DNA from: an uncultured Anaerolineae bacterium
GTDB taxonomy: Bacteria; Chloroflexota; Anaerolineae; J036; Brachytrichaceae
Reading direction: 5' to 3'
NCBI GenBank assembly: GCA_938034415.1
Contig: CALHLE010000030.1
Location: 3,708 to 67,707, forward strand
DNA: 64,000 bases
Position 1 is the first letter of the stretch. Each line of letters starts with the position of its first letter. The notes beneath the pieces are model-generated. The model saw only the letters and a list, made by a program, of their open reading frames with translations. It did not search any database and was not told the DNA's origin. Positions 4,151-27,964 of the stretch are shown here, one piece after another. A program made the position numbers and the translations under genes.

Positions 4151-4163
4151 TATTCGTGTCAGG

Positions 4164-5472: not shown

Positions 5473-5532
5473 CGCTGCGTGTGTAACGGCCTAGCCGGCG
5501 CGTAGCGCGGGGCACATGTGCGCTTGCTTAAA

Positions 5533-5606
5533 TGGGAGCGACAAGACTCGAACTTGTGACCTTTGCGATGTCAACGCAACGCTCTAACCAACTGAGCTAC
5601 GCCCCC
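5533..5606 (-). tRNA. tRNA-Val(GAC)
   Basis: Reverse complement folds as a cloverleaf: acceptor GGGGGCG/CGCTCCC, anticodon arm TTGCG-TTGACAT-CGCAA, T arm ACAAG-TTCGAGT-CTTGT. CCA not encoded. TATAAT at 5623-5618. Confidence 0.96.
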
Positions 5607-5682
5607 ATGTTTCGCGTATTATAAACCAATGCGCCGCGCGGCTTTGGGCTCCCCAACGCCAAAAGCAAAGGGGCAGCGAGCA

Positions 5683-6414: not shown

Positions 6415-7073
6415 TGCTGCGCCGTGGGCGAACCGGACTGCGCCGGCTGAGGACGCTTGAACCACGACACGCGCTTCTCCGTGCCGGCGCGCAAGCGTTC
6501 GATGTTCGGGCGGAGGGCGATCAGGATCAACCCGAGCACCCCCCAGCCATAGGCGGCATAAGACCAGTACGTCGCGCCCAGCATCGCGCCGACGGTATTC
6601 GCCACGGCGACAGTCAGCCCGGCCAGCATCGAGGCGATCGAAGCATAGCCGCCGACGAAGAGCATGAGCGAACCGAGCGCGAACGCGGGCACGCCGCCCC
6701 ATGGCCAGATCGCGATGCTGGTGCCGACGGCGGTCGCGCCGCCGGCGCCGCCGCGAAAGTTGAGGAAGCACGACGCATTGTGACCGAGTACGACGCCGAA
6801 GCCGGCCAACGCCTCGGCCCAACCTGCCGTATCCACAACGAAGTGGCGCACAATGAGCACGGCAACCACGCCTTTCAGCACGTCAAGGATGGCCGTCGCT
6901 AAGCCCGGCACGACGCCCGCCGCGCGAAATACGTTCGTGCCGCCGGTGCGGCCGCTCCCAAACTCGCGCACGTCTATGCCTTTGACCAGTTTGACGATAA
7001 TCCAGCCAAACGGGATCGAGCCGATCAAGTAGCCGGCTATGCCGCATGCGGCGCTGATCCAGAATGCGCTCAT
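6411..7073 (-). CDS. plsY: Glycerol-3-phosphate 1-O-acyltransferase PlsY
   Basis: GYLIGSIPFG, GSGRTGGTN, DVLKG, GHNAS, LRPNIERLRAGTE; AGGAG SD before ATG 7073. Confidence 0.93.
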   Translation of the reverse strand: MSAFWISAACGIAGYLIGSIPFGWIIVKLVKGIDVREFGSGRTGGTNVFRAAGVVPGLATAILDVLKGVVAVLIVRHFVVDTAGWAEALAGFGVVLGHNASCFLNFRGGAGGATAVGTSIAIWPWGGVPAFALGSLMLFVGGYASIASMLAGLTVAVANTVGAMLGATYWSYAAYGWGVLGLILIALRPNIERLRAGTEKRVSWFKRPQPAQSGSPTAQQ

Positions 7074-7165
7074 AACTCCTAATCTCATGATATGGTAACA
7101 CCAACGCACGAAATGAGACGCGCCTGCCTAAATGGTTTGGCACACGCCGGATATAGAAAGAAGCG

Positions 7166-7822
7166 ATGCTTTCCGAATCAATCCAGGACTATCTGAAGGC
7201 GATTTACGGCCTGCGCCATGAGAACGCGCGCGCCACGACGAACGCGCTTGCAGCCCGGCTGAACGTGACAGCCGCTTCCGTCACCGGCATGCTCAAGAAG
7301 CTAGCCGAGCTGAAGCTGGTGATCTACGAGCCATACCAGGGCGCCACGCTGACGCCTGCGGGCGAGAAGATCGCGCTGGAGGTCATTCGTCACCATCGGC
7401 TGATCGAGCTCTATCTGACCGAAGCGATGGGCTATTCGTGGGACCAAGTGCACGCCGAAGCGGATCGCTTAGAGCACGCCATTAGCGAGGAGTTCGAGGA
7501 GCGCATCTCGACCTTGCTCGGCCACCCTACTGTGGACCCGCACGGCGACCCCATCCCGACCAAAGACGGCGAAATTGCGACTAGCTCGCGAGACACCCTG
7601 GACAACGTCGCGGAAGGCAGCCGGGTGCGCATCGAGCGCGTGCGCGACGAAGACCCCGCGTTGCTGCGCGAAGTGGCCGACCTGGGGCTTACGCCACAGA
7701 CCGTCATCACCATCGGCAGCCGGAAGGACGGCGCCTCGCTCACCGTGTATCTGGCCGATGGCCAATCTCGCTGCATCAGCGCCCGGATCGCCCAAAGCAT
7801 CTTCGTCGTGAATGCCCCCTGA
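7166..7822 (+). CDS. DtxR/MntR family metal-dependent repressor with C-terminal FeoA domain
   Basis: QDYLKAIY, VTGMLKKL, RHHRLIELYL, EADRLEH, PTVDPHGDPIP. Confidence 0.92.
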   Translation: MLSESIQDYLKAIYGLRHENARATTNALAARLNVTAASVTGMLKKLAELKLVIYEPYQGATLTPAGEKIALEVIRHHRLIELYLTEAMGYSWDQVHAEADRLEHAISEEFEERISTLLGHPTVDPHGDPIPTKDGEIATSSRDTLDNVAEGSRVRIERVRDEDPALLREVADLGLTPQTVITIGSRKDGASLTVYLADGQSRCISARIAQSIFVVNAP

Positions 7823-7965
7823 GTCCCCGGCGCGGCCGCATCCGAATTGACAAATTCGCCGTGATAGATATACGATGCGCGCCAATACGCTTTGCGGGCA
7901 TCGCAGGCTTCGATGCCGCTGCAAGCGAGAGGCCGCAGTCGAATAATGGAGAGGAGGGCAGCAAA

Positions 7966-8619
7966 TTGAAGACGGTGCTTCGTATCGCATCATTCGTTGA
8001 CTCGATCACCGATCGTCTGAGCGGGCTGATCAGCATCATCGTTGTTCTGGCTGTCGTGGCCGGCTTCCTGAACGCCGCGTTGCGCTACCTCGGTCAAGCG
8101 TTGCAACGCACGTTGATCTCCAACGAGTTGATTCAGTTGCAGTGGTATCTCTTCTCGCTGCTCTTTCTGATCGGATTCCCCTACTTGCTCAAGCACAACG
8201 TTAACGTGCGCGTAGATTTCTTCTACTCGCGCTGGGGCCCGCGCCAACGTGCGCTCGTGGATTTCCTGGGCACGTTGCTCTTCCTCGTTCCATTCACCTT
8301 GCTGGCGATCTATGTGAGCGTCGGCCCGGTGCTGACCTCATGGGGCCGCCTGCCGGATGGGAGCTGGGGGCCTTGGGAGATGTCGAGCGACGCCGGCGGA
8401 TTGCCGATGGCGCCGCTCAAGTCGCTGATCATCGTCGGCTTCTTCGGCCTATTGGTGCAGTCCATCGGGCAACTAACAAAGTATGCCGCCGTCCTCCTCG
8501 GCTACCACGAGGCCGACGAGGCGGTGATGGTCGCCGAGACAGAGCAGATGATGGCCGAAGAACTGGCGCGCGAGATGCGCGAAGAGCTGGAGCACGAGCG
8601 CGAGGCGTCAGCGCGCTAA
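7966..8619 (+). CDS. dctQ: TRAP transporter small permease (DctQ)
   Basis: ELQWYLFS-like, HNVNVRVDFFY, four TM helices; start re-picked at TTG 7966 after GGAGG. Confidence 0.88.
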   Translation: MKTVLRIASFVDSITDRLSGLISIIVVLAVVAGFLNAALRYLGQALQRTLISNELIQLQWYLFSLLFLIGFPYLLKHNVNVRVDFFYSRWGPRQRALVDFLGTLLFLVPFTLLAIYVSVGPVLTSWGRLPDGSWGPWEMSSDAGGLPMAPLKSLIIVGFFGLLVQSIGQLTKYAAVLLGYHEADEAVMVAETEQMMAEELAREMREELEHEREASAR

Positions 8620-8638
8620 CAACCCAAAGTAAAGAGCG

Positions 8639-10021
8639 ATGGAAGGATTCAACCCGCAGTGGCTCGGCATCCTCATGTTCGTCGGCTTCTTCTTCCTGTT
8701 GCTGACGGGCTATCCGGTCGCGTTCTCGTTCGCTGGCGTCTCCATCGTCTTCGGGTTAATCGGCCTGGCGATGGGCGCATTCGACTTCAACCTGCTGCTC
8801 TCTCTGCCGAACAGTTGGTTCGGCATCATGAGCGACAGCACGCTGTTGGCGATTCCTTTCTTCATCTTCATGGGCGCCATCCTAGAGAAGTCGGGCCTGG
8901 CAGAGGAGTTGCTGGAAACAGTAGGCCAGTTGATGGGGCCGGTCAAAGGCGGCATCGCGCTGGCCGTAGTCATCGTCGGCACGTTGCTGGCTGCGACCAC
9001 CGGCGTGGTGGCGGCGACGATCATCGCGATGGGTCTGATCTCGCTGCCGACGATGCTGAAGTATGGCTACAACAAAGGCCTGGCGACGGGCGTCATCATC
9101 GCCTCGGGCACCATGGCGCAGATGATCCCGCCCAGCATTGTGCTTGTGCTGCTCAGCGACCAGTTCGGCGTGTCCATCGGCGACTTGTTCGCCGGCGCGA
9201 TCGTGCCCGGCCTGATGTTAGCCGGCGCCTACGCGGCCTACGCGCTGCTGGTGGCTTATCTGCGCCCGGGCAGCGCGCCGGCCTTGCCGCCGGAGGCGCG
9301 CACGATGAGCGGTCGCACCCTGCTGCTGCGCACGCTCAGGGCCTTTGTGCCGCCGGTCGCGCTTATCCTGGCCGTGCTGGGCACGATCTTCGCCGGCCTG
9401 GCCACCCCCAGCGAAGCCGGCGCGTTCGGCGCAATCGGCGCATCCATCCTGGCCGTGGCAAACCGTCGGATGAGCCGCAAAGTCATCGCCGACGCCGCCT
9501 TGGCCACCGCCAAGACCACCGGCCTGGTGCTGATGATCCTCTTTGCGTCCACACTTTTCACCAAGGTGCTGTTCGGCCTGGGCAGCGACCTGTTGATCGA
9601 GGAGTGGCTGACCAACCTCCCCGGCGGCTTTTGGACGTTCGTCATCGTCGCCAACATCGTGATCTTCTTGCTGGGCATCTTCCTGGAGTTCCCAGAGATC
9701 ACCTACATCGCCATGCCGCTGCTGGTGCCGGCGGCCGAGAAGGTGCTCAACACCGTTAATGAGATGGGGGCGTTCGCCAACGAGGGCTACACGATGGTGT
9801 GGTTCGCCATCGTCGTGGCGATCAACCTGCAAACGGCGTTCATCTCGCCGCCGGTCGGCTTCTCGCTGTTCTACATGCAAAGCGCTGTGCCGAAAGAGGT
9901 AAGCACGGCCGAGATTCACCGCAGCGCAATCCCCTTCATGATCATCCAGCTCATCGTGCTGGTGATCGTGATCGCCTTCCCGGAGACGGTCAACCTGCTG
10001 GTGCGGTTGTCGTTCCAATAA
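8639..10021 (+). CDS. dctM: TRAP transporter large permease (DctM)
   Basis: [39 protein letters not shown]. Confidence 0.93.
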
Positions 10022-14911: not shown

Positions 14912-15166
14912 TTACTTAATGCCGAGCAGTTGATTAATCTTGTTGCGATCGAAACCAACGACGATTCGCCCGCCGATGTCGATCACCGGCACGCCTTGTT
15001 GCCCCGAACGACGCACCATGTCGCGCGCCGCTGCCGGGTCGCGGCTCACGTCCACATCATGGAACCGAATCCCCTTTTGACGGAAGTAAGCCTTCGCCTG
15101 GTTGCAAAACGCGCAGGTCGGCGTGCTAAAAATGATCACCGTAGGTTGCGTGACACCTTTTGTCAT
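14912..15166 (-). CDS. Glutaredoxin-like protein (YruB/NrdH-redoxin type)
   Basis: FSTPTCAFC, SGQQGVPVI, VGFD. Confidence 0.92.
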   Translation of the reverse strand: MTKGVTQPTVIIFSTPTCAFCNQAKAYFRQKGIRFHDVDVSRDPAAARDMVRRSGQQGVPVIDIGGRIVVGFDRNKINQLLGIK

Positions 15167-15208
15167 AACAACTCACTCTCCTCCGAACATTGCTTTCTAA
15201 AGGTGGTT

Positions 15209-15234
15209 GGATGCAACGCCAAACAAAAGGTGAC
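15209..15234 (-). promoter_or_regulatory. Putative ECF-sigma promoter, copy 2
   Basis: GTCACCTTT-N11-GCATCC upstream of the glutaredoxin-groES-trxB-osmC operon. Confidence 0.7.
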
Positions 15235-15275
15235 AAATCCACAGGCGCGGGGAGCAGCCCGCTGGATGATTCCGG

Positions 15276-15291
15276 CGTGATTTCCGTCACA
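15276..15291. promoter_or_regulatory. Crp/Fnr-family-like operator
   Basis: CGTGA-TTTCCG-TCACA, 9/10 to TGTGA-N6-TCACA. Confidence 0.45.
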
Positions 15292-15350
15292 TCGAAGTAG
15301 CGCGAGTGCGCACTACTCCGCGTTCCTGCCTGGGTTATATTTCCGCCGGT

Positions 15351-15743
15351 ATGCGTGCGCTGCAGCAGGTTACCTTGCTGTTCGTCGCGGGACTCGTCCT
15401 GACTGCGCCGCTGTTGTGCGTGCAGTTCTGCGAATTGCAACACCATATCGCCCGGCCGCAAGTCTCGTTTGCCGAGATGGCGCGGTTGCACGCGCTAAGC
15501 CTGTCCGAGCGCCAATCGCAACAGCGCACGCATCATCACAGCGACGACCGCGCACCCCTGATGCGGTTGAAGCAGATGGTGAACAGCGTCACCGAGTTTC
15601 TCCTGACGCTGGGCCTCGTATTTGGAGCATCTATAGCTGCGCTGCGCCCCGCCATTTTGCATTTACACCTGAGCCAGCCGGTGCTTGCTGTGCCCACACC
15701 GCCCCCACGCCTCTGCGCGATTCGCCCCATCCTCACGCCGTGA
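15351..15743 (+). CDS. Small Cys/His/Pro-rich membrane-targeted protein, CutF/DUF2946-like leader
   Basis: N-terminal hydrophobic segment ending in CVQFC (CxxxC), HHH patch, C-terminal PTPPPR; first gene of the copper operon. Confidence 0.6.
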   Translation: MRALQQVTLLFVAGLVLTAPLLCVQFCELQHHIARPQVSFAEMARLHALSLSERQSQQRTHHHSDDRAPLMRLKQMVNSVTEFLLTLGLVFGASIAALRPAILHLHLSQPVLAVPTPPPRLCAIRPILTP

Positions 15744-16894
15744 TGTTCGCCGGCGCGCCGAGCGCGTGCGGCGCGCTTGAGGCGCATCACGAAGGGTCTT
15801 CGCACACACGCGCTTGTGTCATCGCATCTCGGTTTCTAACTGGAGGCGTTATCAACGCACTGGAGCCGTTGGCGCGAGCGGTGCTTTATGTCGCGCTCAT
15901 GATCATGGTCGGCCTGCCGATCGGCATGGCCGGCGTCGTGCTGCCGGTCTTTCGCCGTCACGACGTCGCCGCACAGACCGCCCTGAAGTTCGCCAGACGC
16001 GGGCTGCTCGTTGCTTGTCTGGCAACGATGGTCGGCGCAACCGCGTTCTTCGTCGCGCAGGTCGCGCCGCTCGAACTGGAGTTCAGCAGCGTCGCGGAAT
16101 GGGCTGAGTTCGTGCAACGCGCGCTGCTGGGCCAGATGTGGATCGCACGGCTGGCGCTTGGGCTCGTTGCGCTGGTCATCGTGAAGTTCGGCGCGAATCC
16201 AGCAGCCTGGCTGGCCGGCTGCGCGCTGGCCGGGCTGGCGACGCAGGCCACTCTCACCCGCACTAGCCACAGCGCGGCGATGGGCGAGGGATGGCTGCCA
16301 GTCGCTGCGGACTTCGCGCACCTCTTCGCCGGCGCGTTGTGGGGCGGCGGCCTCATCGCTCTGCTTATCGCCGTGGGTGGCGCGCAGCGCGAGGACATCG
16401 AGACGACGCGCGCCCTGATCGGGCGCTTCGCGCCGTTCGGCATCGCCGGTGTGGCGCTCGCCGCCGGCACAGGCATCGCGCTCTCATCGGTGCACGTCGC
16501 CGACGCTGAAACGCTGCAGGCCTCTGACTACGGCCGGCTGATCCTGATCAAAGTTGTCCTGGTTGTAGGAGCAGTCGCGCTGGCGGCGCTGCACAGGTTC
16601 GTCATCCTACGGCGCATGAGGTCCCAGCTCGATGTGCGGCGCTTCAGGCGCGCGTTGCTGGTTGAGTCAATCCTGGTGCTCGGCATCTTCGCCGGCGCGG
16701 CCCTGTTGGCTTCCACCTCGCCGCCGCACCACGTGGTGACCCACCAGATGCCCGACGGCTCAACGCATATGATGCTGATGACAGATCCAGTCTTTCAGCG
16801 CGCGTTGCAGATCGCCGCATTGGCGATCCTCGCAGCGGGCGCCATTGCGTGCGCGCTGGAATGGCGCACACGCCTCCGATCTCAGACCAGATGA
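15743..16894 (+). CDS. copD: CopD family copper transport membrane protein
   Basis: TSHSAA, ADFAHLFAGALWGGGL, SDYGRLILIK, LLVE. Start uncertain: ATG 15743, or ATC 15851/TTG 15869 behind GGAGG at 15842. Confidence 0.85.
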   Translation: MFAGAPSACGALEAHHEGSSHTRACVIASRFLTGGVINALEPLARAVLYVALMIMVGLPIGMAGVVLPVFRRHDVAAQTALKFARRGLLVACLATMVGATAFFVAQVAPLELEFSSVAEWAEFVQRALLGQMWIARLALGLVALVIVKFGANPAAWLAGCALAGLATQATLTRTSHSAAMGEGWLPVAADFAHLFAGALWGGGLIALLIAVGGAQREDIETTRALIGRFAPFGIAGVALAAGTGIALSSVHVADAETLQASDYGRLILIKVVLVVGAVALAALHRFVILRRMRSQLDVRRFRRALLVESILVLGIFAGAALLASTSPPHHVVTHQMPDGSTHMMLMTDPVFQRALQIAALAILAAGAIACALEWRTRLRSQTR

Positions 16895-18105
16895 AAAGTT
16901 CGATTCGACTGACGGCGGTCTTCGCATTCGCCGCATCCCTTGTTTTGACGACGAACCGAGCGACCGAGGCGCACGCTATGCTCGTCAGCGCCGACCCGGC
17001 GCCGAACTCGACCATCGGAACTGCGCCCAAGCAGATCAAGCTGTTGTTCAATGAAGCGCTCCAGGATGTCGGACACACCATCGCCCTGCTCGACGAGAAG
17101 CAGAACAAGATTGCAATCGGTAAGGCGATGCTTGATCCGAAGGACCAGGCCAAAAAGACGGTGATTGCTGAGATACCGACAGCGCTGGCTGCGGGCAACT
17201 ACAGGGTGGATTGGAAGGCGCTGTCCACCGACGGTCACACCGTCAAGGGGAGCTTCAAATTCACCCTGGCCGAGATGGTCGAGATGACGTTGAAGTTCGC
17301 CTTCAAAGCGGGCAAAGAACCGGTCGCCTGCGGCAAAGAGATTAAGAACCTCGGCGCGCGGCGCACTACGGCGCAGATCATGGACGCCCGGATGTATATC
17401 TCGAACATCCGCTTGATCGGCCCCGGCGGCGAAGTGCCGTTCGAGCTCGTCCCAGACGGCAAGTGGCAAACCGACCGCGTGGCGCTGCTGGACTTCGAGG
17501 ATGGCAGCGCGATGTGCAAGGAGACCGGCAACGCCGACCTGCGCGATGTGATCATCGGCAAGGCCCCGGCCGGCAAATACACCGGCATCGTCTTCGACTT
17601 GGGCATCCCGTTCGAGCTGAATCATGCCGATGTAGCCGTCGAAGCGGCGCCGCTCAACATCCAGGCGCTGTGGTGGAACTGGCAGACCGGCTACAAGTTC
17701 GTGCGGATTGACCTGGCTACCAACAGCGCGCCGCCCAACGACAAGTGGTTCATCCACCTGGGCAGCACCGGCTGCGGCATGATGGAGAAGGGTCACAGCA
17801 GCGACCCGCACGGCATGGCCAACAAGCCGCCGGAGAAGCCCTGCAACAACCCGAACATAGTCACCGTCCGGCTCAACCGCTTCGACCCGAACAAAGATCA
17901 GATTGTGGCCGACCTGGCCGGCCTGTTGACGAACGTCAACATCGCCCAATCCACGCCCAAGCCGGCCGGCTGCATGTCCGGCGTGGACGATCCGGACTGC
18001 CGCCGGCTGATCCCGAACTTCGGCCTCTCACTGGCCAAAGGCCAATGTGTGAACGGCTGTCGCGGCCAGCGGTTCTTCCGCGTCGAAGCAGCCGCCAAAC
18101 CCTGA
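16891..18105 (+). CDS. CopC-MbnP fusion copper-binding protein
   Basis: Signal peptide cleaved at ATEA|H gives an N-terminal His; CopC domain (HAMLVSADP...STDGH) followed by an MbnP domain (VALLDFEDG, FDLGIPFELNH, WNWQTGYKF, IHLGSTGC, GCMS...DPDC). Confidence 0.88.
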   Translation: MKSSIRLTAVFAFAASLVLTTNRATEAHAMLVSADPAPNSTIGTAPKQIKLLFNEALQDVGHTIALLDEKQNKIAIGKAMLDPKDQAKKTVIAEIPTALAAGNYRVDWKALSTDGHTVKGSFKFTLAEMVEMTLKFAFKAGKEPVACGKEIKNLGARRTTAQIMDARMYISNIRLIGPGGEVPFELVPDGKWQTDRVALLDFEDGSAMCKETGNADLRDVIIGKAPAGKYTGIVFDLGIPFELNHADVAVEAAPLNIQALWWNWQTGYKFVRIDLATNSAPPNDKWFIHLGSTGCGMMEKGHSSDPHGMANKPPEKPCNNPNIVTVRLNRFDPNKDQIVADLAGLLTNVNIAQSTPKPAGCMSGVDDPDCRRLIPNFGLSLAKGQCVNGCRGQRFFRVEAAAKP

Positions 18106-18189
18106 TTCGTGATTCTGAGGCGCGGACGCGTCGCGCGCCTGCGCCTGTGAATCGAAGGTTTAACTTTTAGAAGGAGTGTAGTAAGAGAC

Positions 18190-18690
18190 ATGACGAACAC
18201 AAAGCATCACGTAGGCATCCGATACACGTTTCTGGCCGTCGCCGCCGGCGTTGCGCTGGCGTTGACGGCATGTGGAGGCGGCTCGGCTCCTGAGCCAACC
18301 CAGGCGCCGCCGGCTGCTCCGGCCGCCGAGCCGACTAAAGTGCCCGCCGATGTAGTGGCCAAGGGCAAGGAAGCCTTCAACAAATATGGCTGCCAGGCCT
18401 GCCACGCCATCCAGGGCTTTGCCGAGGGCGCCGTTGGGCCGGCCTTGGACAACTTGTACACTAACGCGCAGCGGACCATCGCCAGCGCTGAGTACAAGAG
18501 CAGCGCAGGCAAAGCGACGACGGCTGAGGAGTACGTCCGAGAATCCATCCTCAACCCCAACGCCTTCGTCGTCGCCCAGTGCCCCACCGGCCCCTGCCCC
18601 AAGGGCGTGATGATCCAGAACTTCAAGGACCAGATCAGCGACTCTGAACTGGAAGCGCTGATCGGCTACTTGATGACGCTGGGCCGCTAG
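18190..18690 (+). CDS. Monoheme c-type cytochrome lipoprotein
   Basis: Lipobox LALTA|C, CQACH, VGPALD, YVRESILNP. Confidence 0.9.
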   Translation: MTNTKHHVGIRYTFLAVAAGVALALTACGGGSAPEPTQAPPAAPAAEPTKVPADVVAKGKEAFNKYGCQACHAIQGFAEGAVGPALDNLYTNAQRTIASAEYKSSAGKATTAEEYVRESILNPNAFVVAQCPTGPCPKGVMIQNFKDQISDSELEALIGYLMTLGR

Positions 18691-18742
18691 TACGCCATCC
18701 GCGGATGGCGCAAGGGTGTAATGCCCCTCGCGCCATCCGCCC

Positions 18743-19441
18743 TTGCACATGACGCTGCCCAGATCCGTCGGCTACGCCTTCCTCGCCGCGTTACTGTGTG
18801 CCGGGATGGTCGCCGGCGCGCCCTTCGCCGGCCGCTTGGCGCGGCTCGGCATCGCGCGGGCGCGCATGCACCTGCGCATAGCCTGGCGCGCCATCGCGCC
18901 GCTGGCCATGCCGAAATACCTCGACGCCCCACTACAGCGCGCAATTCATGTTCGCGCGCCATCGCGTCCGCCCAGCGTGACCTTCGTGAACGGTCACATG
19001 GACCCTTTCACGCTGGATGAGCTGCGCGGCTATGGGGTGTTGCTGTTCTTCGGCACGCTCGATTGCGACGGAGGATGCTTGCGCGCCCTGGATCAGTTTG
19101 CGCGCGTGAAAGCCGCGCTCGGCGAGCATGCTGCGCGCGTGCGATTCGTGATGATCGGCGTGGACATCGAGCGCGACCGCCCGCGCCCGCTGCTGCGGCT
19201 GGTGCGCTCGTACGACCCAGACTTCATGGCGCTGACGGCAGATGCGCAGACGGTCATGCCTTTCGCGCACAAGCACGGCGTAACCGTGCTGCGGGCATCG
19301 CACTCGACCGGCAACATGCTCGTCCCGCTCACACCCTACATCATCTACTTGAATCCACAAGGCTTGTGGACGATGTGCTTCCCGTTGGGTATGTCGGCGG
19401 AGGAGATCGCCGATGAGATCATTTACTCGCTGGGGTTGTGA
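18743..19441 (+). CDS. SCO family protein
   Basis: FFGTLDCDGGC (CxxxC), VMIGVDIERD, IYLNPQG. Confidence 0.8.
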   Translation: MHMTLPRSVGYAFLAALLCAGMVAGAPFAGRLARLGIARARMHLRIAWRAIAPLAMPKYLDAPLQRAIHVRAPSRPPSVTFVNGHMDPFTLDELRGYGVLLFFGTLDCDGGCLRALDQFARVKAALGEHAARVRFVMIGVDIERDRPRPLLRLVRSYDPDFMALTADAQTVMPFAHKHGVTVLRASHSTGNMLVPLTPYIIYLNPQGLWTMCFPLGMSAEEIADEIIYSLGL

Positions 19442-19445
19442 AGCT

Positions 19446-20999
19446 ATGCGCCGCTCGCCCGGCGCACTGATGATTGCGCTGGCCCTGGCGTGCATCGGTT
19501 TGGGCTTGACCGCGATACTCCAGCCACAGCCGGCCGTCGCATCGCCACGCGCGTGGGTATGGGACCTGCCTCCGCACGTGCCGCCGCCGCGCGTGCCGGA
19601 ATGGAACCCGATGACGCCGGAGAAGTTCGAGCTGGGCCGCTATCTGTTCTACGACGTGCGTCTCTCCGGCAACGGCAGGCAAGCGTGCGCCACATGCCAT
19701 CAGCAGCGCCTAGCCTTCAGCGATGGGCTGCCTCAGAGCATCGGCAGCACCGGCGATGTCCACCCGCGCAACGCGCAGTCGCTCGCCAACGTCGCCTGGT
19801 TCTCGACGCTCACTTGGGCCAACCCGCTGCTCACCGAGCTCGAGAAGCAAATCCCGATCCCGATGTTCGGCGAATTCCCGGTCGAGCTGGGCATCACCGG
19901 CAAAGAGCAGGAAGTGCTCGGCCGCTTCCGCGCAGACCCGCAGTATCGCCGAATGTTCGCGGCGGCCTTCCCCGGCGAAGCCGAGCCGATTACCTGGAAG
20001 AACATCACCTATGCGTTGGCGACGTTCACCCGTGGCCTCACCTCTTTCGATTCGCCCTACGACCGCTACCTGGCCGGCGACCAGGCTGCACTCACCCCGT
20101 CCGCCATCCGCGGCATGCAGCTGTTCTTCTCCGAGGATTTAGAGTGCCATCACTGCCACACCGGTTTCAACCTGAGCGCTTCAACCACCTTCTCCGGCGC
20201 GGTCTTCATCGAACGGCCATTCTTCAACACCGGCCTGTACAACATTGACGGCAAGGGCGCCTACCCACCGGACAATGAGGGCGTAAAGGAATTGACCAAC
20301 GATCCAACCGACATGGGGCGCTTCCGGCCGCCGTCGCTGCGCAACGTGGCGCTCACCGCGCCTTATATGCACGACGGCAGCATAGCCACCTTAGAGGAGG
20401 TGATCCGCTTCTACGAGCGCGGCGGGCGCAAGATCGTCAGCGGGCCGTATGCCGGCGATGGACGGCTCAGCCCGTTGAAGAGTGGCCTGGTGTCCGGCTT
20501 CACGCTCACCGACGCGCAGCGACGAGATTTGATCGCTTTCCTGGAAAGCTTAACCGATTGGCAGTTCGTTACGAACCCGCGCTTCAGCGACCCCTTTGCG
20601 CCCGCACCGGCGATCCAGGCTACCCCCGCGCCGCGCCCGGCTGCGACGCCGATGGCCATCGCGCCATCGCCCACCGCGTTGCCGGTCTTCAGCCGGCAGG
20701 AATATCGCGCGCGCCTGAATGCCATAGTTGCAGACCTCGGCGTACTGAGCCGGTCAGTGCGGCGCGGAGACCGCGCTGCAGCGCAGCGCCTGGGGCGCCA
20801 GGTGCACGATCGCTTGCACGCCCTCCGCGCCACGTCGCAGCAACTCCGAGTCGGCGATGCGCACGACCGCGCCGAGGAGCATCTGCATGGTCAAGTGCTC
20901 GCTCGACTCACCGAAGCAGATGTCCGACCGGCGACCCTGGCTGCGTCCATCCGCGACCTGCAAGCCATGCTGCGCGCGATGGCAAAAGCCGCAAGTTGA
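19446..20999 (+). CDS. mbnH: MbnH family di-heme enzyme with C-terminal extension
   Basis: ELGRYLFYD, CATCH, CHHCH, FFNTGLYN, FRPPSLRNVALTAPYMHDGS; in an operon with mbnP. Confidence 0.88.
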   Translation: MRRSPGALMIALALACIGLGLTAILQPQPAVASPRAWVWDLPPHVPPPRVPEWNPMTPEKFELGRYLFYDVRLSGNGRQACATCHQQRLAFSDGLPQSIGSTGDVHPRNAQSLANVAWFSTLTWANPLLTELEKQIPIPMFGEFPVELGITGKEQEVLGRFRADPQYRRMFAAAFPGEAEPITWKNITYALATFTRGLTSFDSPYDRYLAGDQAALTPSAIRGMQLFFSEDLECHHCHTGFNLSASTTFSGAVFIERPFFNTGLYNIDGKGAYPPDNEGVKELTNDPTDMGRFRPPSLRNVALTAPYMHDGSIATLEEVIRFYERGGRKIVSGPYAGDGRLSPLKSGLVSGFTLTDAQRRDLIAFLESLTDWQFVTNPRFSDPFAPAPAIQATPAPRPAATPMAIAPSPTALPVFSRQEYRARLNAIVADLGVLSRSVRRGDRAAAQRLGRQVHDRLHALRATSQQLRVGDAHDRAEEHLHGQVLARLTEADVRPATLAASIRDLQAMLRAMAKAAS

Positions 21000-21047
21000 T
21001 TTCGAGGGGCGCGCATGGTGAAGCCGCACGCCCCATCGGTAGATGCG

Positions 21048-24000
21048 CTAACGCTCGATCGCAAACATCGCGCCGTCGCTCCGTCCAAAGACTTCGGGGA
21101 AGTAGGTCTGCTCGGCCGATGCCGGCATCACCTTGAACTGGCCGACGATGCTGGGCCGAATGACGTAGGTGTATTCGTAGGTGCCGGCGGGCAAGTAGCC
21201 GGCGAAGACGGCCACGCGGTCGTCGTAGATTTCGCGGTGGGTGAAGTACCACCAGCCCCAACCCACCTTGCTGCCAAAGGCAGGCACCGGGGGCAAGGCA
21301 TCTTGAACCAGCGTTTGGCTAGTCCGCAGCGAGGTGTCCACTACCTCGGCGCCGGCCGGCAGCGGGTCGGTGACGCGCACGTAGTACAGCTCGCTCGGCG
21401 CGACGATGGTGAGTCGCACGCGCACGTTCTGCCCGACTTTTGCGCCGGTGATCGCCGGGCATAGCTTATCCGGCGACGGCGCGCAGTCGGCCGGCTCATA
21501 CTTGCGCGCGATCACGATGCCGCGATTGACGGCCGGCGCCGAATCGGCGGGCAGATAGGCGCGCAGGCGCGCGGTGTAATACAGGCGTCCCTCGCCCGCG
21601 CCGCGCTCGAAGGCCAGCTCATTGGCCTGCGCGCGCAACAGATTCCCGACGGGAACCACGACTTCCGCCGACCCGCCTTGCGGGTTAGCCTGGCCGCGCA
21701 TCAGGCTCTGGTCGTTCAGCGTCGCCCGCCAATCGAAGGCGCTGCGGCGCTCATCGGTCGCCTGGATCCATTCGGCGAAGGCGACGATCGCCCACTCGGT
21801 CTCCTGCGTAGTGGACCAGCCGCTGCCGCTGCGCGCGGCCATTAGCCAGCGCACGACGTTAGGCGCGAGGGCGCTGCGCGCATCGAGTCGCGCAAGAGCC
21901 GCCAGCACGATGGCCGTGCTGCGCGTGTCGCTGAAGAAATTAGCCCAGTCGCGCTCGCGCTCTTGCCATGAAACGCCAGTTGCGCTGGTGATCGCTGCGG
22001 ACTGGATGTCCGCCAGCAGGGTCTTGATTCGGCTATCGCCGGGGTTCACCTTGTCCTGGGCCATGGCCAGCAGCGCCTGGCCGTAGTGGCTGAGCTTGGC
22101 GCGGCTTTCGTAGAGCGCGCCCAACCGGCCGCTGTCGCCGCGTTGGGCCTCGGCCTGCGCGAACAAGATGTAAGCCTGCCGATTGGCGGCAGTCGCATCG
22201 GTCAGCGCGCTGGGCGGCTTGAGCTGCTCGCTCAGGTAGTTGAGCGCGCGATTCAGCGTGCCCTCGTCCACCAGGAAGCCGGCCTGCCGTGCGCGCGCCA
22301 TAGCCAGCACGACATGGGCGCTGACCATCGGATCGCTCACATTGCCGCCCCACCATCCCCAGCCGCCGTCGCTGTTTTGCTGTCCGTAGAGACGTTGCAA
22401 CGTCGCTGCGACGTTATTCTGCAACGCGGCGAGGTCGTCGGCCTGGACGCCGGCCTGCGCCAGCGCCAGGCGCGCGATCAAGCGTGAGGCCGCCCAGTCG
22501 GCGCTCTCATAGGGATGGGCTTCCAGCGCCTCCACGCCCTTCGCCGCGGCAGCGCCGAGGCCGGTATCCACGCGGACGGTCAAATCGCCCTGGCCGGTGT
22601 CCAGCCGTGGCGGCAGCGCAATCAGCTCGAGCTTGCGCCCCGGCTCGCCCAGGTCGCCCGCCGTGCCGACCGTCTCCGGCGCAGCATAGCGCAGGATAGG
22701 GATACCGTTCGGCGCGCCGAAGACGCCGGGCTGCGCGCTATCCTGTAAGCCGCCGCCGGCCACCGTCATGGTGATCTCGGACGAGGCCGCCGCGCCGATC
22801 GGCGGCTCCTGCACGGTCACCGTCCAATCCACGCGCGCAGCGCTGCCGGCCTTCACGTTGACCCGCTGGATGGCGCTTCCCCCGATCAGCGTGAGGCCGG
22901 TGGAGACGAGGGCGACCCGCGCGTCGAGGTCGGCGGTGGTGTTGTTGTTCACCACTGCGCCGATGGTGACCGTGTCGCCGGCGACGAAGAAGCGCGGGGT
23001 CACCGGCCGCACGAGCAGCGGTTTGGTCGCTACGACCTCGTTGATCGCCTCGCCCACGCGAGTATCGGGAGTGATGGCGCGCGCGGTCATCCGCCACGTG
23101 GTCAGGTTGTCGGGCAGGATGATCTGCACGCGCGCCCGGCCGTCGGCGCCGGTCTGCACCACGGCGTTCCAGTAGGCGGTGTCCTTGAAGTTGCGGCGGG
23201 TGAATTGCGCGTCGGCAAGCGCTTCGCCGCCTCCGCCGCCGCCTTTGGCTTCGGCCGCCGTCACCTTGGCGGTGATGCGATCTACGTTCACGTTGAGCGT
23301 GCTGGCCGTGCGCACGCTGAGCGGGCGCCGGCCGTAGAACGCATCGAGGATCGGCTCGACGTTCGGCTCGGCTAGGCTGAGCACGGCTTTATCCACCAGG
23401 GCCAGCGACAGTTCGGCCTGCACCGGCTGGCCGGCCACATCGGTCACGCGGATGTCATAGGTGGCCGTGTCGCGCGGAGCGTACTGCGTCCGGTCGGGGG
23501 TAATCTCGACGTTCAGGGCGAATTGCGCCGGATCCACCGCGAACTGGGTGTAGCCTAAGCGATAGGCCGGCACGGGGTTGTCGCCGCTCACCCCTTTGAC
23601 GAGCATTACCGAGACGTAGACGTTCGGCGCGAAACTCGGCTCGATAGGGATGTCGAGCACGTCGCTGTTGCTGCGCAGGGTGAGGGTCTTGCGTTGGATG
23701 AAGCCGCTGCGCTCAATCGTCAGCAGCGCAGTGGCTGCGCCCTGGAAGGGCGACGGCACCAGCACGCGCGCCGTCTCGCCCACTTGGTAGCTGGGCTTGT
23801 CGGCCTTCAGCTCGATGCGGTCGTTGTTCTCGATGCGCCAGGCCACATAGGCGCGATCCGACGAGACGTAGACTGACGCGCCGGCAGCCACGGCCGGCGC
23901 GTCAGCGGCGGGGGCGGCGGCGACGATGTGATATTCGCCGCCCTCCTGCGGCCGGAAGCCGGCCACCGCCCGGCCTTCCGCATCGGTCGTGACGGTGATC

Positions 24001-27000
24001 GAGAACACCTCGGTGTCGCTGGGCAGGGAGGTGTAGTACAAACCACCGTAAGGATCCTGCTCCTGCGTGGTGAACCACTCGCGGCGGTTGAACGAAACGA
24101 TGACCGGCCGGTTCGGCATAGGCCGACCGTCCCAATCCAACGAGATTACCTCGGCCACGACTTCTTGGCCGGCGCTGAAGACATAGCCGCGCGGCGCAAC
24201 GCCGATGTAGGACAAGCCTTTGTGCGCAACGACGGCGACCCGCGCCGAGACGCTCTGGTCATTGACATCAGTCACGCTCGCCTCCAGGGTAAAGCGCGCG
24301 CTGGTCTTGCGCTTGCCGAGGTCGGCCGGCAAGCGCAGCGTGAAGCGGCCCTGCGCGTCGGTGACGCCCTCGCCGCCGGCGATCAACTCGCTGAAGCCGA
24401 AGAAGCGGCGCGGGCTGTAGTCGAAGTCGCCAAAGGTATAGCCGCCTGCGCCGGTGTAGCGGTCGAAGAAGTAATCCGTCGCAAGCAACGACCAGCGCAC
24501 CTTCGCGCCGGCCACATTCCCGCCAAAGAAGTATTTGGCGTCGAAGGTGGCGTTGATCGTCTCGCCGTCGAGGTAGTCGGCCTTGTCCGCTGCGGCCGTC
24601 ACCTCGAATTCCGGCGCGCGATACGCGGCGACGAGAAACGAAACGCCGTAGTAGCTGCACGGCGGATCATCTTTATTCGGATTTGGCCTGGGAACACAGA
24701 CCTGGATGTAGTACTGGCCGGTAGATGCGCCGTTGTCTAGGGCGAACTGGCCGTTGAAGCCGCCGTTGGCGTCCAGCGGCGCGGTCGCGCTGAACACCTG
24801 TTGCCCTTGGCCGTTGAAGATGGCAAGGCCGACCTGGGTCACATCTGCCGGTATTGCATAGCGCGCGTCGTCGTCGCGCCGCACGATGCCCTTATAGAAC
24901 ACCATCTGACCGGGGCGATAGATCGGGCGGTCGGTGTAAACGTAGGCGAAGAACGGCTCGGCCTGGTAGCGTCCGGGCAGGTTGAAGTCGTAGATGTTGA
25001 TGCCGTAGGACATCTCGCTCCAGGCGACGCCAAATGGGCCTGATGCGCCCGGCTCGCCCACCAGCGCGTAGAGCGTTTGGTAGGGTCGGTAGCTCTCAGG
25101 GAAGATGACAAAGGCTTGGCCGGCTTCCTCGCCGGCGCCGGTGACGCCGGAAGCGATCTCGGCGAACGCAGCGTCGCGGAAGGAGACGGCCACGCCCGGT
25201 AATGGCGCGCCCGTGTTCAAGTTCGTCACCCAGGCCAACCCTTCGCGGTCACCGCGCTTTAGGCCAATGTGCACATTGGTGACGATGAGGATGTGACGCA
25301 CAGGCTGGAATTCGCGGTCAAGGGCGACCAACTCCGGCGCGCTCACTTCGAGCAGGTAGATGCCGGTCGGTAATGCGCCGCCGTCCTCGCTCAGCAAAGC
25401 CTTGTAATTGGCCGATTCGTTCAAGCCGGCCGATGTCATCGCCGACCACCGCCGCACTATCTGATCGGCATTGGGCTGGAAGGCGCGCAGGTTTCTATAC
25501 GAGTCGAACGCGCCGGTGAGGTCGTAGAACTGTTGCGGCGTGAGCGACGCCAGCGCGAAATCCAATCGGGTGACGTTGCGATGGAACACGAACAACTGCG
25601 TAGGCTGCGCAGCGTTGTATGTGCCGATCAATCCATCGCTCTGCACGATCACCAGCGGCGGCAGCGGGCCGGTCGAGAAGCGCACCTCAACATCCTGGCC
25701 GATCTTGACGCCGTAGATGTCGGTTGCATCGCCGCCGATGCGCGCGCGATAAGCCGTGGACGGCTTGAGGTTGACGTTGAGCACGAACTCGTTGCTGAAC
25801 TCGTCGTAGTAGCTGTATACACCAGTCAGCGTGACCGGTGGATCGAACGACAAATTCGCAATGACGGTGGGCACGGACATCGGCGCGCTGAAGCGGATGG
25901 AGAAGCCGTCGTCGGCCAGAGCGCGATCTTGGCCGTTGGCCGGGCGCGTGCTCACCACGGACGGCAGGGGGACGGTTCGGAAGGTCGTAGCCACCTCGTT
26001 AAACGTCGCGCCCGATCCGACGGCAGCGCGCGCGCCGGCTTTCACGCGCACCGTATAGGTCTGTCCGCGCTGATAGTCCTCTGCGGGCACGAAGGCCATC
26101 ACCTCGCCGGCAGTTTGCCGGGTCGGCATAGGCGAAGATTCGCCGGGCTGCCCTGATGCGAACGCATCGGGCGGCGACTCATCGGCCCAGCGGAACGACC
26201 CGCGCACCGGCGGCTCGATGACGAACGCGGCTTCGGCGCTCGCGCGATCCATCCTCTGGCTGAACGTGACGCTGATGGGCTGACGCAGGCCGATGTTCTC
26301 CGCGCCCTCCGAAGGCGTGATGAACTTGACGACCGGCGCAGCTACGCTGAACGTCCAAGCGTAGTCGCGCTCCAGCAGCGCGCCCGTAGTGTCTCGCAGG
26401 CCGGCTGCGACGCGGCCCTCGTAGATCGCGCCGGCTTGCAGCGGCCGCGATGGCTGAAAGACGTAGATGCTGGTGTTGAGCCACCGCCCACGGCCGGGGA
26501 TCGGCGGATTGAACGTAACCGGCGTGGGCAGGCCGGCCTGCTGGTCGAGCAGGGTCAGCGAAACCACCGGCCGGTTGAACAGCACGGTGATCGTCGCGTC
26601 GGCGGCGACATCTTGCGCGCCGGCGGCGGGGATAGTCTGCGCGACGGCCAGCGCGCCGATGGTGTTGACGATGAACGACTCCGGCCGGGCCAGCGCCAGC
26701 CCCTTGGCGCTCCGCGCGTCGCTTGAAAGCGAGACGGTGTAGCGCGCCGCGCGCGCCCAGTTCTGGCTCGGCTTGAACACGGCGCGGTTGTCGCCCGTCC
26801 ATTCGAGTTTGCCAGCGACGGCGACGCCGTCGCTGCTCTGCACGCTCAGGGCGCGTTCCACCGAGCGCCGGTCCATCGGTTGGTCGAAGATCAATTCGAT
26901 GGGCTTGTCCACCGGCAGCTCCTCGCCTTGGACGGGGGCGCGGTCCACCAGAATAGGGTTGGCGAGCGGCCTCGGCGTGGGCGATGGTCTAGGCGTCGCA

Positions 27001-27128
27001 GGTGGGTTGATCTGAGCGGTGATCTGCGGCGTGACGCTCGGCTCAGGCGCGGGTTGGTTGCACCCGGCTATCGAGATCGAAGCGGCAAGCACAAGGCTCA
27101 CCATACGGGCTGGCAAATATCTACGCAT
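21048..27128 (-). CDS. Alpha-2-macroglobulin family lipoprotein with N-terminal Ig-like domains
   Basis: Lipobox SIAG|C, repeated FDQPM/FNRPV/FSQRM/FSAPM Ig-like units, YTDRPIYRPG, FKDTAYW, PDNLTTW, DGGWGWW, AEQTYFPEVFGRS. Confidence 0.93.
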   Translation of the reverse strand: MRRYLPARMVSLVLAASISIAGCNQPAPEPSVTPQITAQINPPATPRPSPTPRPLANPILVDRAPVQGEELPVDKPIELIFDQPMDRRSVERALSVQSSDGVAVAGKLEWTGDNRAVFKPSQNWARAARYTVSLSSDARSAKGLALARPESFIVNTIGALAVAQTIPAAGAQDVAADATITVLFNRPVVSLTLLDQQAGLPTPVTFNPPIPGRGRWLNTSIYVFQPSRPLQAGAIYEGRVAAGLRDTTGALLERDYAWTFSVAAPVVKFITPSEGAENIGLRQPISVTFSQRMDRASAEAAFVIEPPVRGSFRWADESPPDAFASGQPGESSPMPTRQTAGEVMAFVPAEDYQRGQTYTVRVKAGARAAVGSGATFNEVATTFRTVPLPSVVSTRPANGQDRALADDGFSIRFSAPMSVPTVIANLSFDPPVTLTGVYSYYDEFSNEFVLNVNLKPSTAYRARIGGDATDIYGVKIGQDVEVRFSTGPLPPLVIVQSDGLIGTYNAAQPTQLFVFHRNVTRLDFALASLTPQQFYDLTGAFDSYRNLRAFQPNADQIVRRWSAMTSAGLNESANYKALLSEDGGALPTGIYLLEVSAPELVALDREFQPVRHILIVTNVHIGLKRGDREGLAWVTNLNTGAPLPGVAVSFRDAAFAEIASGVTGAGEEAGQAFVIFPESYRPYQTLYALVGEPGASGPFGVAWSEMSYGINIYDFNLPGRYQAEPFFAYVYTDRPIYRPGQMVFYKGIVRRDDDARYAIPADVTQVGLAIFNGQGQQVFSATAPLDANGGFNGQFALDNGASTGQYYIQVCVPRPNPNKDDPPCSYYGVSFLVAAYRAPEFEVTAAADKADYLDGETINATFDAKYFFGGNVAGAKVRWSLLATDYFFDRYTGAGGYTFGDFDYSPRRFFGFSELIAGGEGVTDAQGRFTLRLPADLGKRKTSARFTLEASVTDVNDQSVSARVAVVAHKGLSYIGVAPRGYVFSAGQEVVAEVISLDWDGRPMPNRPVIVSFNRREWFTTQEQDPYGGLYYTSLPSDTEVFSITVTTDAEGRAVAGFRPQEGGEYHIVAAAPAADAPAVAAGASVYVSSDRAYVAWRIENNDRIELKADKPSYQVGETARVLVPSPFQGAATALLTIERSGFIQRKTLTLRSNSDVLDIPIEPSFAPNVYVSVMLVKGVSGDNPVPAYRLGYTQFAVDPAQFALNVEITPDRTQYAPRDTATYDIRVTDVAGQPVQAELSLALVDKAVLSLAEPNVEPILDAFYGRRPLSVRTASTLNVNVDRITAKVTAAEAKGGGGGGEALADAQFTRRNFKDTAYWNAVVQTGADGRARVQIILPDNLTTWRMTARAITPDTRVGEAINEVVATKPLLVRPVTPRFFVAGDTVTIGAVVNNNTTADLDARVALVSTGLTLIGGSAIQRVNVKAGSAARVDWTVTVQEPPIGAAASSEITMTVAGGGLQDSAQPGVFGAPNGIPILRYAAPETVGTAGDLGEPGRKLELIALPPRLDTGQGDLTVRVDTGLGAAAAKGVEALEAHPYESADWAASRLIARLALAQAGVQADDLAALQNNVAATLQRLYGQQNSDGGWGWWGGNVSDPMVSAHVVLAMARARQAGFLVDEGTLNRALNYLSEQLKPPSALTDATAANRQAYILFAQAEAQRGDSGRLGALYESRAKLSHYGQALLAMAQDKVNPGDSRIKTLLADIQSAAITSATGVSWQERERDWANFFSDTRSTAIVLAALARLDARSALAPNVVRWLMAARSGSGWSTTQETEWAIVAFAEWIQATDERRSAFDWRATLNDQSLMRGQANPQGGSAEVVVPVGNLLRAQANELAFERGAGEGRLYYTARLRAYLPADSAPAVNRGIVIARKYEPADCAPSPDKLCPAITGAKVGQNVRVRLTIVAPSELYYVRVTDPLPAGAEVVDTSLRTSQTLVQDALPPVPAFGSKVGWGWWYFTHREIYDDRVAVFAGYLPAGTYEYTYVIRPSIVGQFKVMPASAEQTYFPEVFGRSDGAMFAIER

Positions 27129-27313
27129 GAGATTCGCGCAAAAGCACTGTTCCCTCTCAACAACGCGTCTTGTGCTCAGGACGCGAGACACGCCTGCGAT
27201 GGGGGCGACGGTCACGCATTAGTGCCGCAAGCAAGCGGATTATCCCCCAATAGCGCGACGATTCAAGCGCGCTTGCGCAGCGCGCGTCATTCATCCGCTA
27301 GAATGCGCTCACG

Positions 27314-27964
27314 ATGGTTGAACGCCTCAACCGCTTTGCCTCCGGCTTCGAGCGCCACTGGCTGGCCGTCCTAGTCGGCATCTTGCTGACCTATTCGCTG
27401 CTGCCGTTCGGCGCGCCGGTCTTGAAGAGGCTCGGCCTGGATGCGCCGGCGCAGATAATCTACCAGCCGTACAAGCTGATGTGTCACACCTACGGCTTCC
27501 GCTCGTTCTTCCTGTTCGGCGAGCGATTCGTCTATAGCCGCTCCGAATTCGAGCAGGCGTCGGGCATAGACACCGGCACATTCGTCGGCCTGTTGCAGGC
27601 GCGCGACTTCCAAGGCGACGCGCGCATGGGCTACAAGGTCGCGCTCTGCCAGCGCGATGTGGCGATCTACTTCGCGATGGGCGTCAACGGCATCGCTTAC
27701 GCGCTGGTGCGCCGCCGCGCCCGGCCCATGCCTTGGCCGCTGTTCGTGCTGATCGGCGTCGTGCCTATCGGCGTTGATGGGTTCTCTCAGTTGCTCAGCC
27801 AGCCCCCGTTCAACCTTTTACCCTACCGCGAGAGCACATGGGGGCTGCGCCTGATCACCGGCGCGTTGTTCGGATTCAGCCTGGCGTGGCTGATCTTCCC
27901 GCTGCTTGAAAGCGCATTCAGGCCGCTGCCGGCGGCGCCGCGCGCTGCCGCGCGCAGCGATTGA
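27314..27964 (+). CDS. DUF2085 membrane protein
   Basis: CHTYGFRSFF, ALCQRDVAIY, PIGVDGFSQ, RLITGALFG. Confidence 0.8.
   Translation: MVERLNRFASGFERHWLAVLVGILLTYSLLPFGAPVLKRLGLDAPAQIIYQPYKLMCHTYGFRSFFLFGERFVYSRSEFEQASGIDTGTFVGLLQARDFQGDARMGYKVALCQRDVAIYFAMGVNGIAYALVRRRARPMPWPLFVLIGVVPIGVDGFSQLLSQPPFNLLPYRESTWGLRLITGALFGFSLAWLIFPLLESAFRPLPAAPRAAARSD

Follow-up and report, generated by a model that had tools for sequence, protein, structure and literature searches.

A 64,000-nucleotide stretch of contig CALHLE010000030.1 (hereafter the window) from a hot-spring Chloroflexota bacterium, whose genome is 98.5% complete, carries a copper operon of six genes: a small leader open reading frame (ORF), copD, a fused copC::mbnP gene, the gene of a cytochrome c lipoprotein, a sco-like gene and mbnH. 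On balance, its sequence features favour a leader-regulated copper acquisition system of a Thermoflexales, Roseilinea-like bacterium without outer-membrane markers, in which the fusion would capture copper and hand it to CopD. Annotation assigns close relatives of this fusion to Candidatus Roseilinea, Thermoflexales or Anaerolineae. Kenney 2019 reportedly places pairs of MbnP and MbnH (MbnPH) near copper-homeostasis genes. Their role outside methanobactin operons is described as open (review PMC11951088).

The CopC::MbnP fusion, MbnH and CopD

A preliminary description of this DNA, made from the sequence alone, had called the leader, copD, copC-mbnP, the cytochrome c lipoprotein and mbnH, and these calls are correct. 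The fusion consists of a signal peptide, a CopC domain, a very short linker and an MbnP domain, in this order, and reaches 81.3 bits with PF04234 (cut-off 23.3), 137.7 bits with PF20243 (cut-off 27) and 260.8 bits with TIGR04052 (cut-off 140). In a sequence search against solved structures, residues 146–397 were matched to MbnP 7L6G with E = 3e-36 and residues 21–140 to CopC structures, with the GTG at 16849 as the first codon of this numbering. With 33 fusion sequences as input, AlphaFold gave a model that reached a predicted local distance difference test (pLDDT) of 81 and a predicted template modelling score (pTM) of 0.75, with each domain above 90 and values below 50 restricted to the signal peptide and residues 296–311. 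Foldseek matched this model to 7L6G with E = 3e-19 and a template modelling (TM) score of 0.72–0.74, normalised to the target, and to CopC structures with a TM score of about 0.9; PcoC is among the matches, and a match covering both domains was not found with the fusion model.

The CopC half, which belongs to the Cu(II)-only type, appears to hold a standard Cu(II) site, since its ligands, the predicted N-terminal His of the mature protein (cleavage between ATEA and HAML) and the Asp and His of STDGH, are kept in 35 of 35 fusions. The MbnP half features the WNW motif, four Cys and the equivalents of H132 and H182 of 7L6G, all of them invariant across 120 homologues. Of the three core Met residues of 7L6G, candidates for the methionine copper ligand, M147 is replaced by Leu and M180 by Phe in the window, and M244 (GCMS) is kept, as it is in 117 of 121 sequences. 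Fused and stand-alone MbnPs differ in the loop between the second and third Cys, which has a median of 34 aa with 6 Met plus His in 39 fusions compared with 12 aa and 0 Met plus His in 75 stand-alone MbnPs. The window's version of this Met/His-rich loop, GMMEKGHSSDPHGM, is predicted by the model to be disordered. Overall, the CopC::MbnP fusion is known from about 40 clusters.

MbnP is found in other fusions as well. PCuAC::MbnP fusions exist (P0047, P0048, P0049, P0110, P0116; loci L067 and L068) and represent a second way of linking MbnP to a copper chaperone; in one case a Sco/AhpC-like gene precedes the fusion, and in another mbnH follows it. Locus L039 encodes a 569-aa protein with two tandem MbnP domains (P0017; 6001–7710), which adjoins an MbnH of 682 aa whose N-terminus carries a long extension.

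MbnH of the window scores 504.1 bits against TIGR04039 (cut-off 362.85) and matches PDB entry 6E1C over residues 25–399 with E = 3.7e-134. Bona fide MbnH is rare, being present in 7 of 401 Anaerolineae species genomes. The protein carries a C-terminal extension of about 130 aa (20610–20996) composed of a Pro/Ala linker and a helical part without any family match, which is present in the window relatives L001–L003, L061 and L062 and was not detected in L063, L036, L064 and L065; within the genus, some members show it and others do not. This extension weakly resembles (BLASTP E = 2e-4) a repeated His-bearing helical module, GD.AAA.....VHD..H.L, found in three copies in the ZnuA-like lipoprotein of locus L070. 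Extensions at the other end of MbnH, 190–370 aa long and without Pfam matches, occur in L024–L026. In L027 (5029–11169), where MbnP was not detected, an MbnH-class gene above the cut-off heads a row of genes on the minus strand; behind it come an ORF of 116 aa, genes for an Nramp transporter and a zinc-ribbon protein, and another three ORFs, probably a ZnuA/ABC-3/ATPase set.

CopD, a polytopic membrane protein, shows eight or more hydrophobic segments (Kyte–Doolittle ≥1.6) plus one extra C-terminal segment and a C-terminal His/Met loop, PPHHVVTHQMPDGSTHMMLM; its PF05425 score exceeds a cut-off of 32.1 bits. The homologue YebZ of E. coli imports copper and requires His135 and His154 for uptake (PMC11923076). 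Aligning a profile of eight Chloroflexota CopDs to YebZ places these residues at TRTSH and DFAHL, respectively, both of which are invariant in the eight proteins; MAFFT alone misplaced His135. By these kept residues, CopD is a plausible copper importer here. YcnJ of B. subtilis, a CopC-CopD protein, is likewise needed for the heme-copper oxidases of its host under copper starvation (PMC13344008). About 4% of proteobacterial CopDs, including that of Methylosinus trichosporium OB3b, are fused to cytochrome c and Sco1/thioredoxin-like domains (PMC11923076), and natural CopC-CopD-Sco fusions exist too (e.g. P0296).

The start of copD varies among the loci. The site aligned with positions 15848–15853 of the window contains ATG in L061, L036 and L064, and GTT or GTC followed by ATC or ATT in the window, L002, L060 and L063. 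The nearest canonical in-frame starts in the window are TTG at 15869 and GTG at 15881, with a CTG at 15860, and the copD start may be non-canonical or regulated.

Conserved core and host genome

The synteny survey covered 401 Anaerolineae species genomes as well as metagenomes; a single-protein scan of genome contigs found three close relatives, and the wider sample stems from genome and metagenome searches. The full-length fusion occurs in only 5 of the 401 genomes, which are all five of the window's genus, and each of them has the six genes in the same order. As the metagenome contigs L064 and L065 also keep these six genes in order, with Sco-like proteins 54–60% identical to that of the window, the arrangement is not due to chance. 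More distant fusions with 48–61% identity (P0014, P0020, P0021, P0039) are found in the order small ORF, copD, copC::mbnP and mbnH, with CopD upstream and MbnH downstream of the fusion in 4 of 4 such contexts, and mbnH directly adjoins the fusion in relatives without the cytochrome c and Sco-like genes. Because the distant fusions lack these two genes, the conserved core consists of leader, copD, copC::mbnP and mbnH, and it is kept down to 48% identity. The expectation that the whole set travels together thus holds for this core, but not for the cytochrome c and Sco-like genes.

Stand-alone MbnPH pairs elsewhere in Chloroflexota are found in other contexts, some of them beside ZnuABC-type/ABC-3 or Nramp importers. 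No CopC or CopD was found beside stand-alone MbnPs by tblastn with the window's proteins only, a search that divergent copies could escape, and the Pfam scan of 66 neighbour ORFs via alignment gives family counts only. The fusion, in turn, lies beside CopD and MbnH in every locus examined, and therefore a Rosetta-stone argument can be made that MbnP feeds the CopC/CopD import route.

The whole genome contains no match to the TonB-dependent receptor barrel (PF00593) and none to Omp85/BamA (PF01103); among 14 control genomes, Omp85 was matched in seven and PF00593 in three. MbnB (TIGR04159) had no match in the whole genome either, MbnA and MbnC not having been searched for separately. The absence of a TonB receptor and, for MbnB, of methanobactin genes, which the preliminary description had noted for the window, therefore extends to the genome, and the likely monoderm host that it assumed agrees with these results. 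With no outer-membrane markers in the host, the MbnP/MbnH pair would therefore not depend on a TonB-dependent receptor.

Proposed copper route and its alternatives

In the proposed acquisition system, MbnH would oxidise the WNW motif of the secreted fusion at its first Trp, yielding kynurenine and thereby a high-affinity Cu(I) site. The fusion, a single polypeptide, would then hold the Cu(I) site of MbnP, the Cu(II) site of CopC and a flexible arm of Met and His, dock on CopD and pass on copper for import. Such a route from MbnP over CopC to CopD is plausible because CopC and MbnP form one polypeptide that is flanked by CopD and MbnH in all four distant contexts. Together with the kept CopD His residues, this supports the first of two copper flows suggested in the preliminary description; the second, from MbnP/CopC to SCO and cytochrome c for oxidase assembly, found no support. 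The cytochrome c lipoprotein and the His-less Sco-like protein would serve as an accessory redox or hand-off cassette of the importer, which might turn Cu(II) into Cu(I) or act in thiol chemistry rather than as an oxidase-assembly chaperone. A CutF-like leader would tie translation of the operon to extracytoplasmic copper, in either the ON or the OFF direction, and the imported copper would ultimately supply two heme-copper oxidases and a cupredoxin.

The published rule set for CutF-like leaders asks for fewer than 150 aa, a hydrophobic N-terminus, CxxxC, a PP motif at most 15 residues from the C-terminus and the first position in a metal operon (PMC9973294). The leader of the window shows every one of these features: residues 9–27 are hydrophobic, PLLCVQFC and HHH come next, and a further hydrophobic segment, VTEFLLTLGLVFGASIAAL, precedes PTPPPR, which lies 12–14 residues from the C-terminus, with PPP at residues 117–119 of 130. 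Pfam DUF2946 did not match the leader, even at E = 10. Leader identity is 67–83% within the genus and 31–40% in L036, L037 and L070, and the leader pattern also heads L025, L026, L037 and L070, including stand-alone mbnP operons of other Chloroflexota; the leader of L070 reads APLICLRYCEL...LTPPPR. In the spacer between leader and copD, RNAalifold found a 7-bp helix that is unchanged in 8 of 8 loci, and the bases just after the leader stop pair with the first copD codons in an outer helix. Since these helices are conserved yet invariant, with no covariation, the RNA structure is unproven.

The leader also brings in a first alternative, copper tolerance or buffering, according to which the secreted fusion would sequester both Cu(I) and Cu(II), the leader would turn the operon on with rising copper in a CutF-like manner, and CopD and the cassette would process the metal. 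CopC and CopD were indeed first found in the copABCD resistance operon of Pseudomonas, which speaks for tolerance and against acquisition. Met-rich loops typify resistance proteins like PcoC, one of the fold matches of the fusion, and the spacer structure would sequester the start region of copD until opened by a leader-held ribosome. MbnP-type sites, in contrast, reportedly have too high a copper affinity to work as a simple buffer (Manesis 2021), the cluster is free of genes for multicopper oxidases, P-type ATPases and RND (resistance-nodulation-division) proteins, and the same leader type and cassette precede an ABC-3 importer in L070 and L071. Copper-detoxifying genes lie behind the majority of CutF-like leaders, which serve as copper-ON switches (PMC9973294), whereas experiments assign CopD homologues to uptake (PMC11923076, PMC13344008). 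Taken together, we regard tolerance as unlikely, but as the strongest of the alternatives.

The remaining alternatives concern the cassette. The Sco-like protein scores 55.2 bits against PF02630 (cut-off 22.8), its CDGGC aligns with CPDVC of Bradyrhizobium ScoI (4WBJ), and ScoI and SCO2 are its best solved relatives. Its earlier designation as SCO fits this match and the CxxxC motif, but the copper-ligand His (D-H-T/S) is replaced by P-L in the window and by P-L, L-L or P-F in clade members, for which reason we call it Sco-like. The His is missing in all 18 clusters of the clade (≥53% identity), which shares an extra Cys in WTMCF and is small, with only 7 representatives at E < 1e-30 among 1.84 billion proteins. 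Among solved structures, the cytochrome c comes closest to 1W2L, the corresponding domain of caa3 oxidase subunit II, and contig C8 of the genome encodes a paralogue with 44% identity in fusion with a bc-complex-type subunit. Relatives of the Sco-like protein with 41–48% identity are likewise encoded behind a cytochrome c (L069). In L070 and L071 the pair stands in an operon without MbnPH, in the order leader, cytochrome c, Sco-like protein, ATP-binding cassette (ABC) ATPase, ABC-3 permease and ZnuA-like lipoprotein. Judged by this distribution, the two genes are a portable cassette and, in the Roseilinea-like lineage, a lineage-specific insertion. We read them as an importer accessory that is neither a partner of MbnH nor an oxidase chaperone, in agreement with the CopD-cytochrome c-Sco1-like and CopC-CopD-Sco fusions.

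The operon of L070 spans 3714–9146, and its lipoprotein of 676 aa has three helical repeats and a His-rich tail; together with its counterpart in L071 it is a candidate copper ABC importer. In L036, where the fusion is 77% identical to that of the window, the Sco-like gene is split across three frames (7847–8510), indicating a pseudogene or an assembly error.

As an oxidase-assembly module, the Sco-like protein and the cytochrome c would take copper from MbnP/CopC and load CuA/CuB of the heme-copper oxidases. The Sco-like protein does pass the Pfam SCO1/SenC threshold with its CxxxC kept and has ScoI and SCO2 as nearest structures, the cytochrome c is similar to that of caa3 subunit II, the copper uptake systems of B. 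subtilis and Bordetella feed oxidases, and PCuAC::MbnP fusions with a Sco/AhpC-like neighbour exist. The genome, however, encodes two COX1 genes, one cupredoxin, one PCuAC and three further Sco genes, the latter all keeping the His: one directly after COX2-COX1 on contig C25 (C25:35876-39132) and two on contig C6, where one of them adjoins the PCuAC gene (C6:6264-8345, Sco, Sco, PCuAC lipoprotein). These two gene sets are likely the oxidase-assembly factors of the genome. Given the His missing in 18 of 18 clade members, the three His-bearing paralogues and the occurrence of the cassette with an ABC-3 importer in the absence of MbnPH, an oxidase-assembly role is improbable; the cassette is furthermore absent from most fusion-bearing loci and frameshifted in L036. 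A function in maturation, with cytochrome c as electron partner of MbnH (O2 replacing H2O2) and the Sco-like protein reducing or isomerising the four MbnP Cys, would suit the position of both genes between mbnP and mbnH, overlapping or abutting the latter, the invariance of the four Cys and the general habit of di-heme peroxidases and MauG to take electrons from small redox proteins, but has just as slender a chance, as most MbnPH pairs, including the fusion core at 48–61% identity, lack both genes and the cassette of L070 and L071 comes without any MbnPH. Published fusions also join the cassette domains to CopD and not to MbnH (PMC11923076).

Several points nevertheless weigh against copper acquisition as the function of the operon. 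The equivalog families of NCBIfam are missed by both copper proteins, with 115 bits for CopD against NF033808 (cut-off 195) and 81.6 bits for CopC against NF033814 (cut-off 95), and the direction of transport by CopD is putative. The proposed roles of the two cassette proteins come from gene neighbourhood and fusions only. The ZnuABC operons by the stand-alone MbnPH pairs are convergent and not co-transcribed with them. Both the fusion and MbnH carry cleavable signal peptides and lack a lipid anchor by which a cell without an outer membrane could retain them. Finally, CutF turns on a detoxifying oxidase with copper, while CruR turns off an uptake receptor (PMC9973294); the leader of the window could act in either direction.

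Going beyond copper acquisition as such, we put forward more tentatively, and with clearly less confidence, that in bacteria without an outer membrane MbnP was recruited as a Cu(I)-capturing head of a CopC/CopD importer, and that the cassette, with its heme and its Sco-like protein of three Cys and no His ligand, might be an extracytoplasmic copper redox converter for CopD or ABC-3 importers. If this were true, the role as Cu(I) head would be the first defined physiological role of MbnP/MbnH outside methanobactin systems, and the system would represent a bacterial counterpart of the eukaryotic reductase-plus-permease logic of copper uptake. The cassette moves between two importer types behind the same leader, which points to an uncharacterised accessory step of bacterial copper uptake, and the fusion offers a compact, expressible construct for testing the route from MbnP to CopC/CopD.

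Operon layout and relation to known systems

The coordinates of the operon are collected in Table 1. The tight and overlapping junctions of six co-oriented genes were already recognised in the preliminary description and are confirmed here: the copD stop and the fusion ATG share an ATGA overlap, gaps of 84 nt and 52 nt separate the fusion from the cytochrome c gene and the latter from the sco-like gene, and the sco-like gene and mbnH overlap by 29 nt or, if the second mbnH ATG is used, lie 4 nt apart. The ATG of mbnH at 19413 is preceded by a GGAGGA box 7 nt upstream, mbnH lies 1.3 kb 3' of the mbnP domain gene on the same strand, and the spacer between leader and copD measures about 105 nt.

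Table 1. Positions of the operon's features in the window.
Feature	Position	Strand	Characteristics
Leader ORF, CutF-like by rule	15351-15743	+	130 aa; no Pfam match
Conserved spacer helix	15762-15812	+	GCGCGTG 15762-15768 pairs with CACGCGC 15806-15812
copD	~15851-16894, start uncertain	+	PF05425 59.7 bits
copC::mbnP fusion, 404 aa	16891-18105	+	PF04234, PF20243, TIGR04052
Cytochrome c lipoprotein, class I, 166 aa	18190-18690	+	PF00034 34.6 bits; LTAC lipobox; CQACH
Sco-like protein, membrane-anchored, thioredoxin fold	18743-19441	+	PF02630
mbnH, MauG-like di-heme enzyme	19413-20999	+	TIGR04039; CATCH and CHHCH

A scan of 15100–21200 for sigma-70 promoters and terminators gave none exceeding the shuffled background. 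Within the cluster, neither YcnI, YebY or YtkA domains nor a YcnK/CsoR-type repressor were seen. Upstream, the opposite strand encodes a glutaredoxin-GroES-thioredoxin reductase-OsmC cluster and a pair of extracytoplasmic function (ECF) sigma and anti-sigma factors. A lipoprotein ORF of 2055 aa on the minus strand (21048–27215) converges on mbnH and is inferred to encode an alpha-2-macroglobulin (A2M), going by the A2M domains of its counterparts in L036, L064 and L065, where it is the conserved neighbour as well. Such a protein is unusual where an outer membrane is lacking, and a link to copper is not apparent. A gene for a DUF2085 membrane protein is found close to the MbnP locus of the window (27314–27964) and also on the unrelated contig L039 (4454–5134), which may be coincidence.

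The claim of an undescribed pathway layout in the preliminary description was overstated, since related operons (PMC9426467) were published in 2022 and CopD-cytochrome c-Sco1-like fusions (PMC11923076) in 2025. A description of the CopC::MbnP fusion or of a setting free of TonB receptors was not found in the literature searched, the two main MbnPH papers lying outside that search. In general architecture, the sco operon of Streptomyces lividans, a bacterium without an outer membrane, comes close to the operon of the window: it comprises sco, ecuC, a copCD-like gene and the dye-decolorising peroxidase (DyP) DtpA, and brings a Sco-type protein and a copper chaperone together with a CopCD-like membrane protein and a secreted heme peroxidase for copper trafficking. 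It differs by having the DyP and a PCuAC-like protein in place of the MauG-like enzyme and MbnP, and its Sco is a canonical copper-binding one.

With the MbnP/MbnH pair of M. trichosporium OB3b (7L6G, 6E1C), the window shares the TIGR families, the 7L6G fold, WxW, the invariant His and the four Cys. In contrast to that pair, MbnP is here fused to CopC and equipped with the Met/His-rich loop, two genes lie between mbnP and mbnH, MbnH has its C-terminal extension of 130 aa, and the genome has no TonB-dependent receptor, outer-membrane markers or MbnB.

The YobA-YebZ-YebY system of E. coli and YcnJ (CopC-CopD-YtkA) with YcnI of B. subtilis likewise place a CopC with an N-terminal His Cu(II) site by a CopD with the His pair for import (PMC11923076, PMC13344008), and B. 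subtilis, too, lacks an outer membrane and has heme-copper oxidases to supply. In the window, however, CopC is fused to MbnP and not to CopD, and regulation is apparently exerted by a leader peptide. The CopD-cytochrome c-Sco1-like fusion proteins (PMC11923076) unite the same CopD membrane part, c-type cytochrome and Sco-like fold, which are encoded here by three separate genes, with copC::mbnP between copD and the cassette and a Sco-like protein lacking the His ligand.

Finally, operons with DUF2946 copper-sensing leaders and CopC, Sco, PCuAC, YcnI and MbnPH were catalogued in 2022 (PMC9426467). The leader of the window resembles those of the CutF/CruR (DUF2946) operons in being a small first ORF with a hydrophobic N-terminus, CxxxC and a C-terminal PPP, and the downstream genes catalogued for these operons overlap with those of the window in CopC, Sco, MbnPH and metal transporters (PMC9426467, PMC9973294). 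It departs from them by the missing DUF2946 match and the second hydrophobic segment, and its operon has neither a TonB receptor nor a PepSY gene; the host, moreover, belongs to a phylum in which CutF/CruR leaders are reported to be scarce. Compared with all these systems, what is new is the joining of CopC and MbnP in one protein together with the Met/His loop, the clade of Sco-like proteins without the His, the portable cassette, and a setting without TonB receptor and outer-membrane markers.

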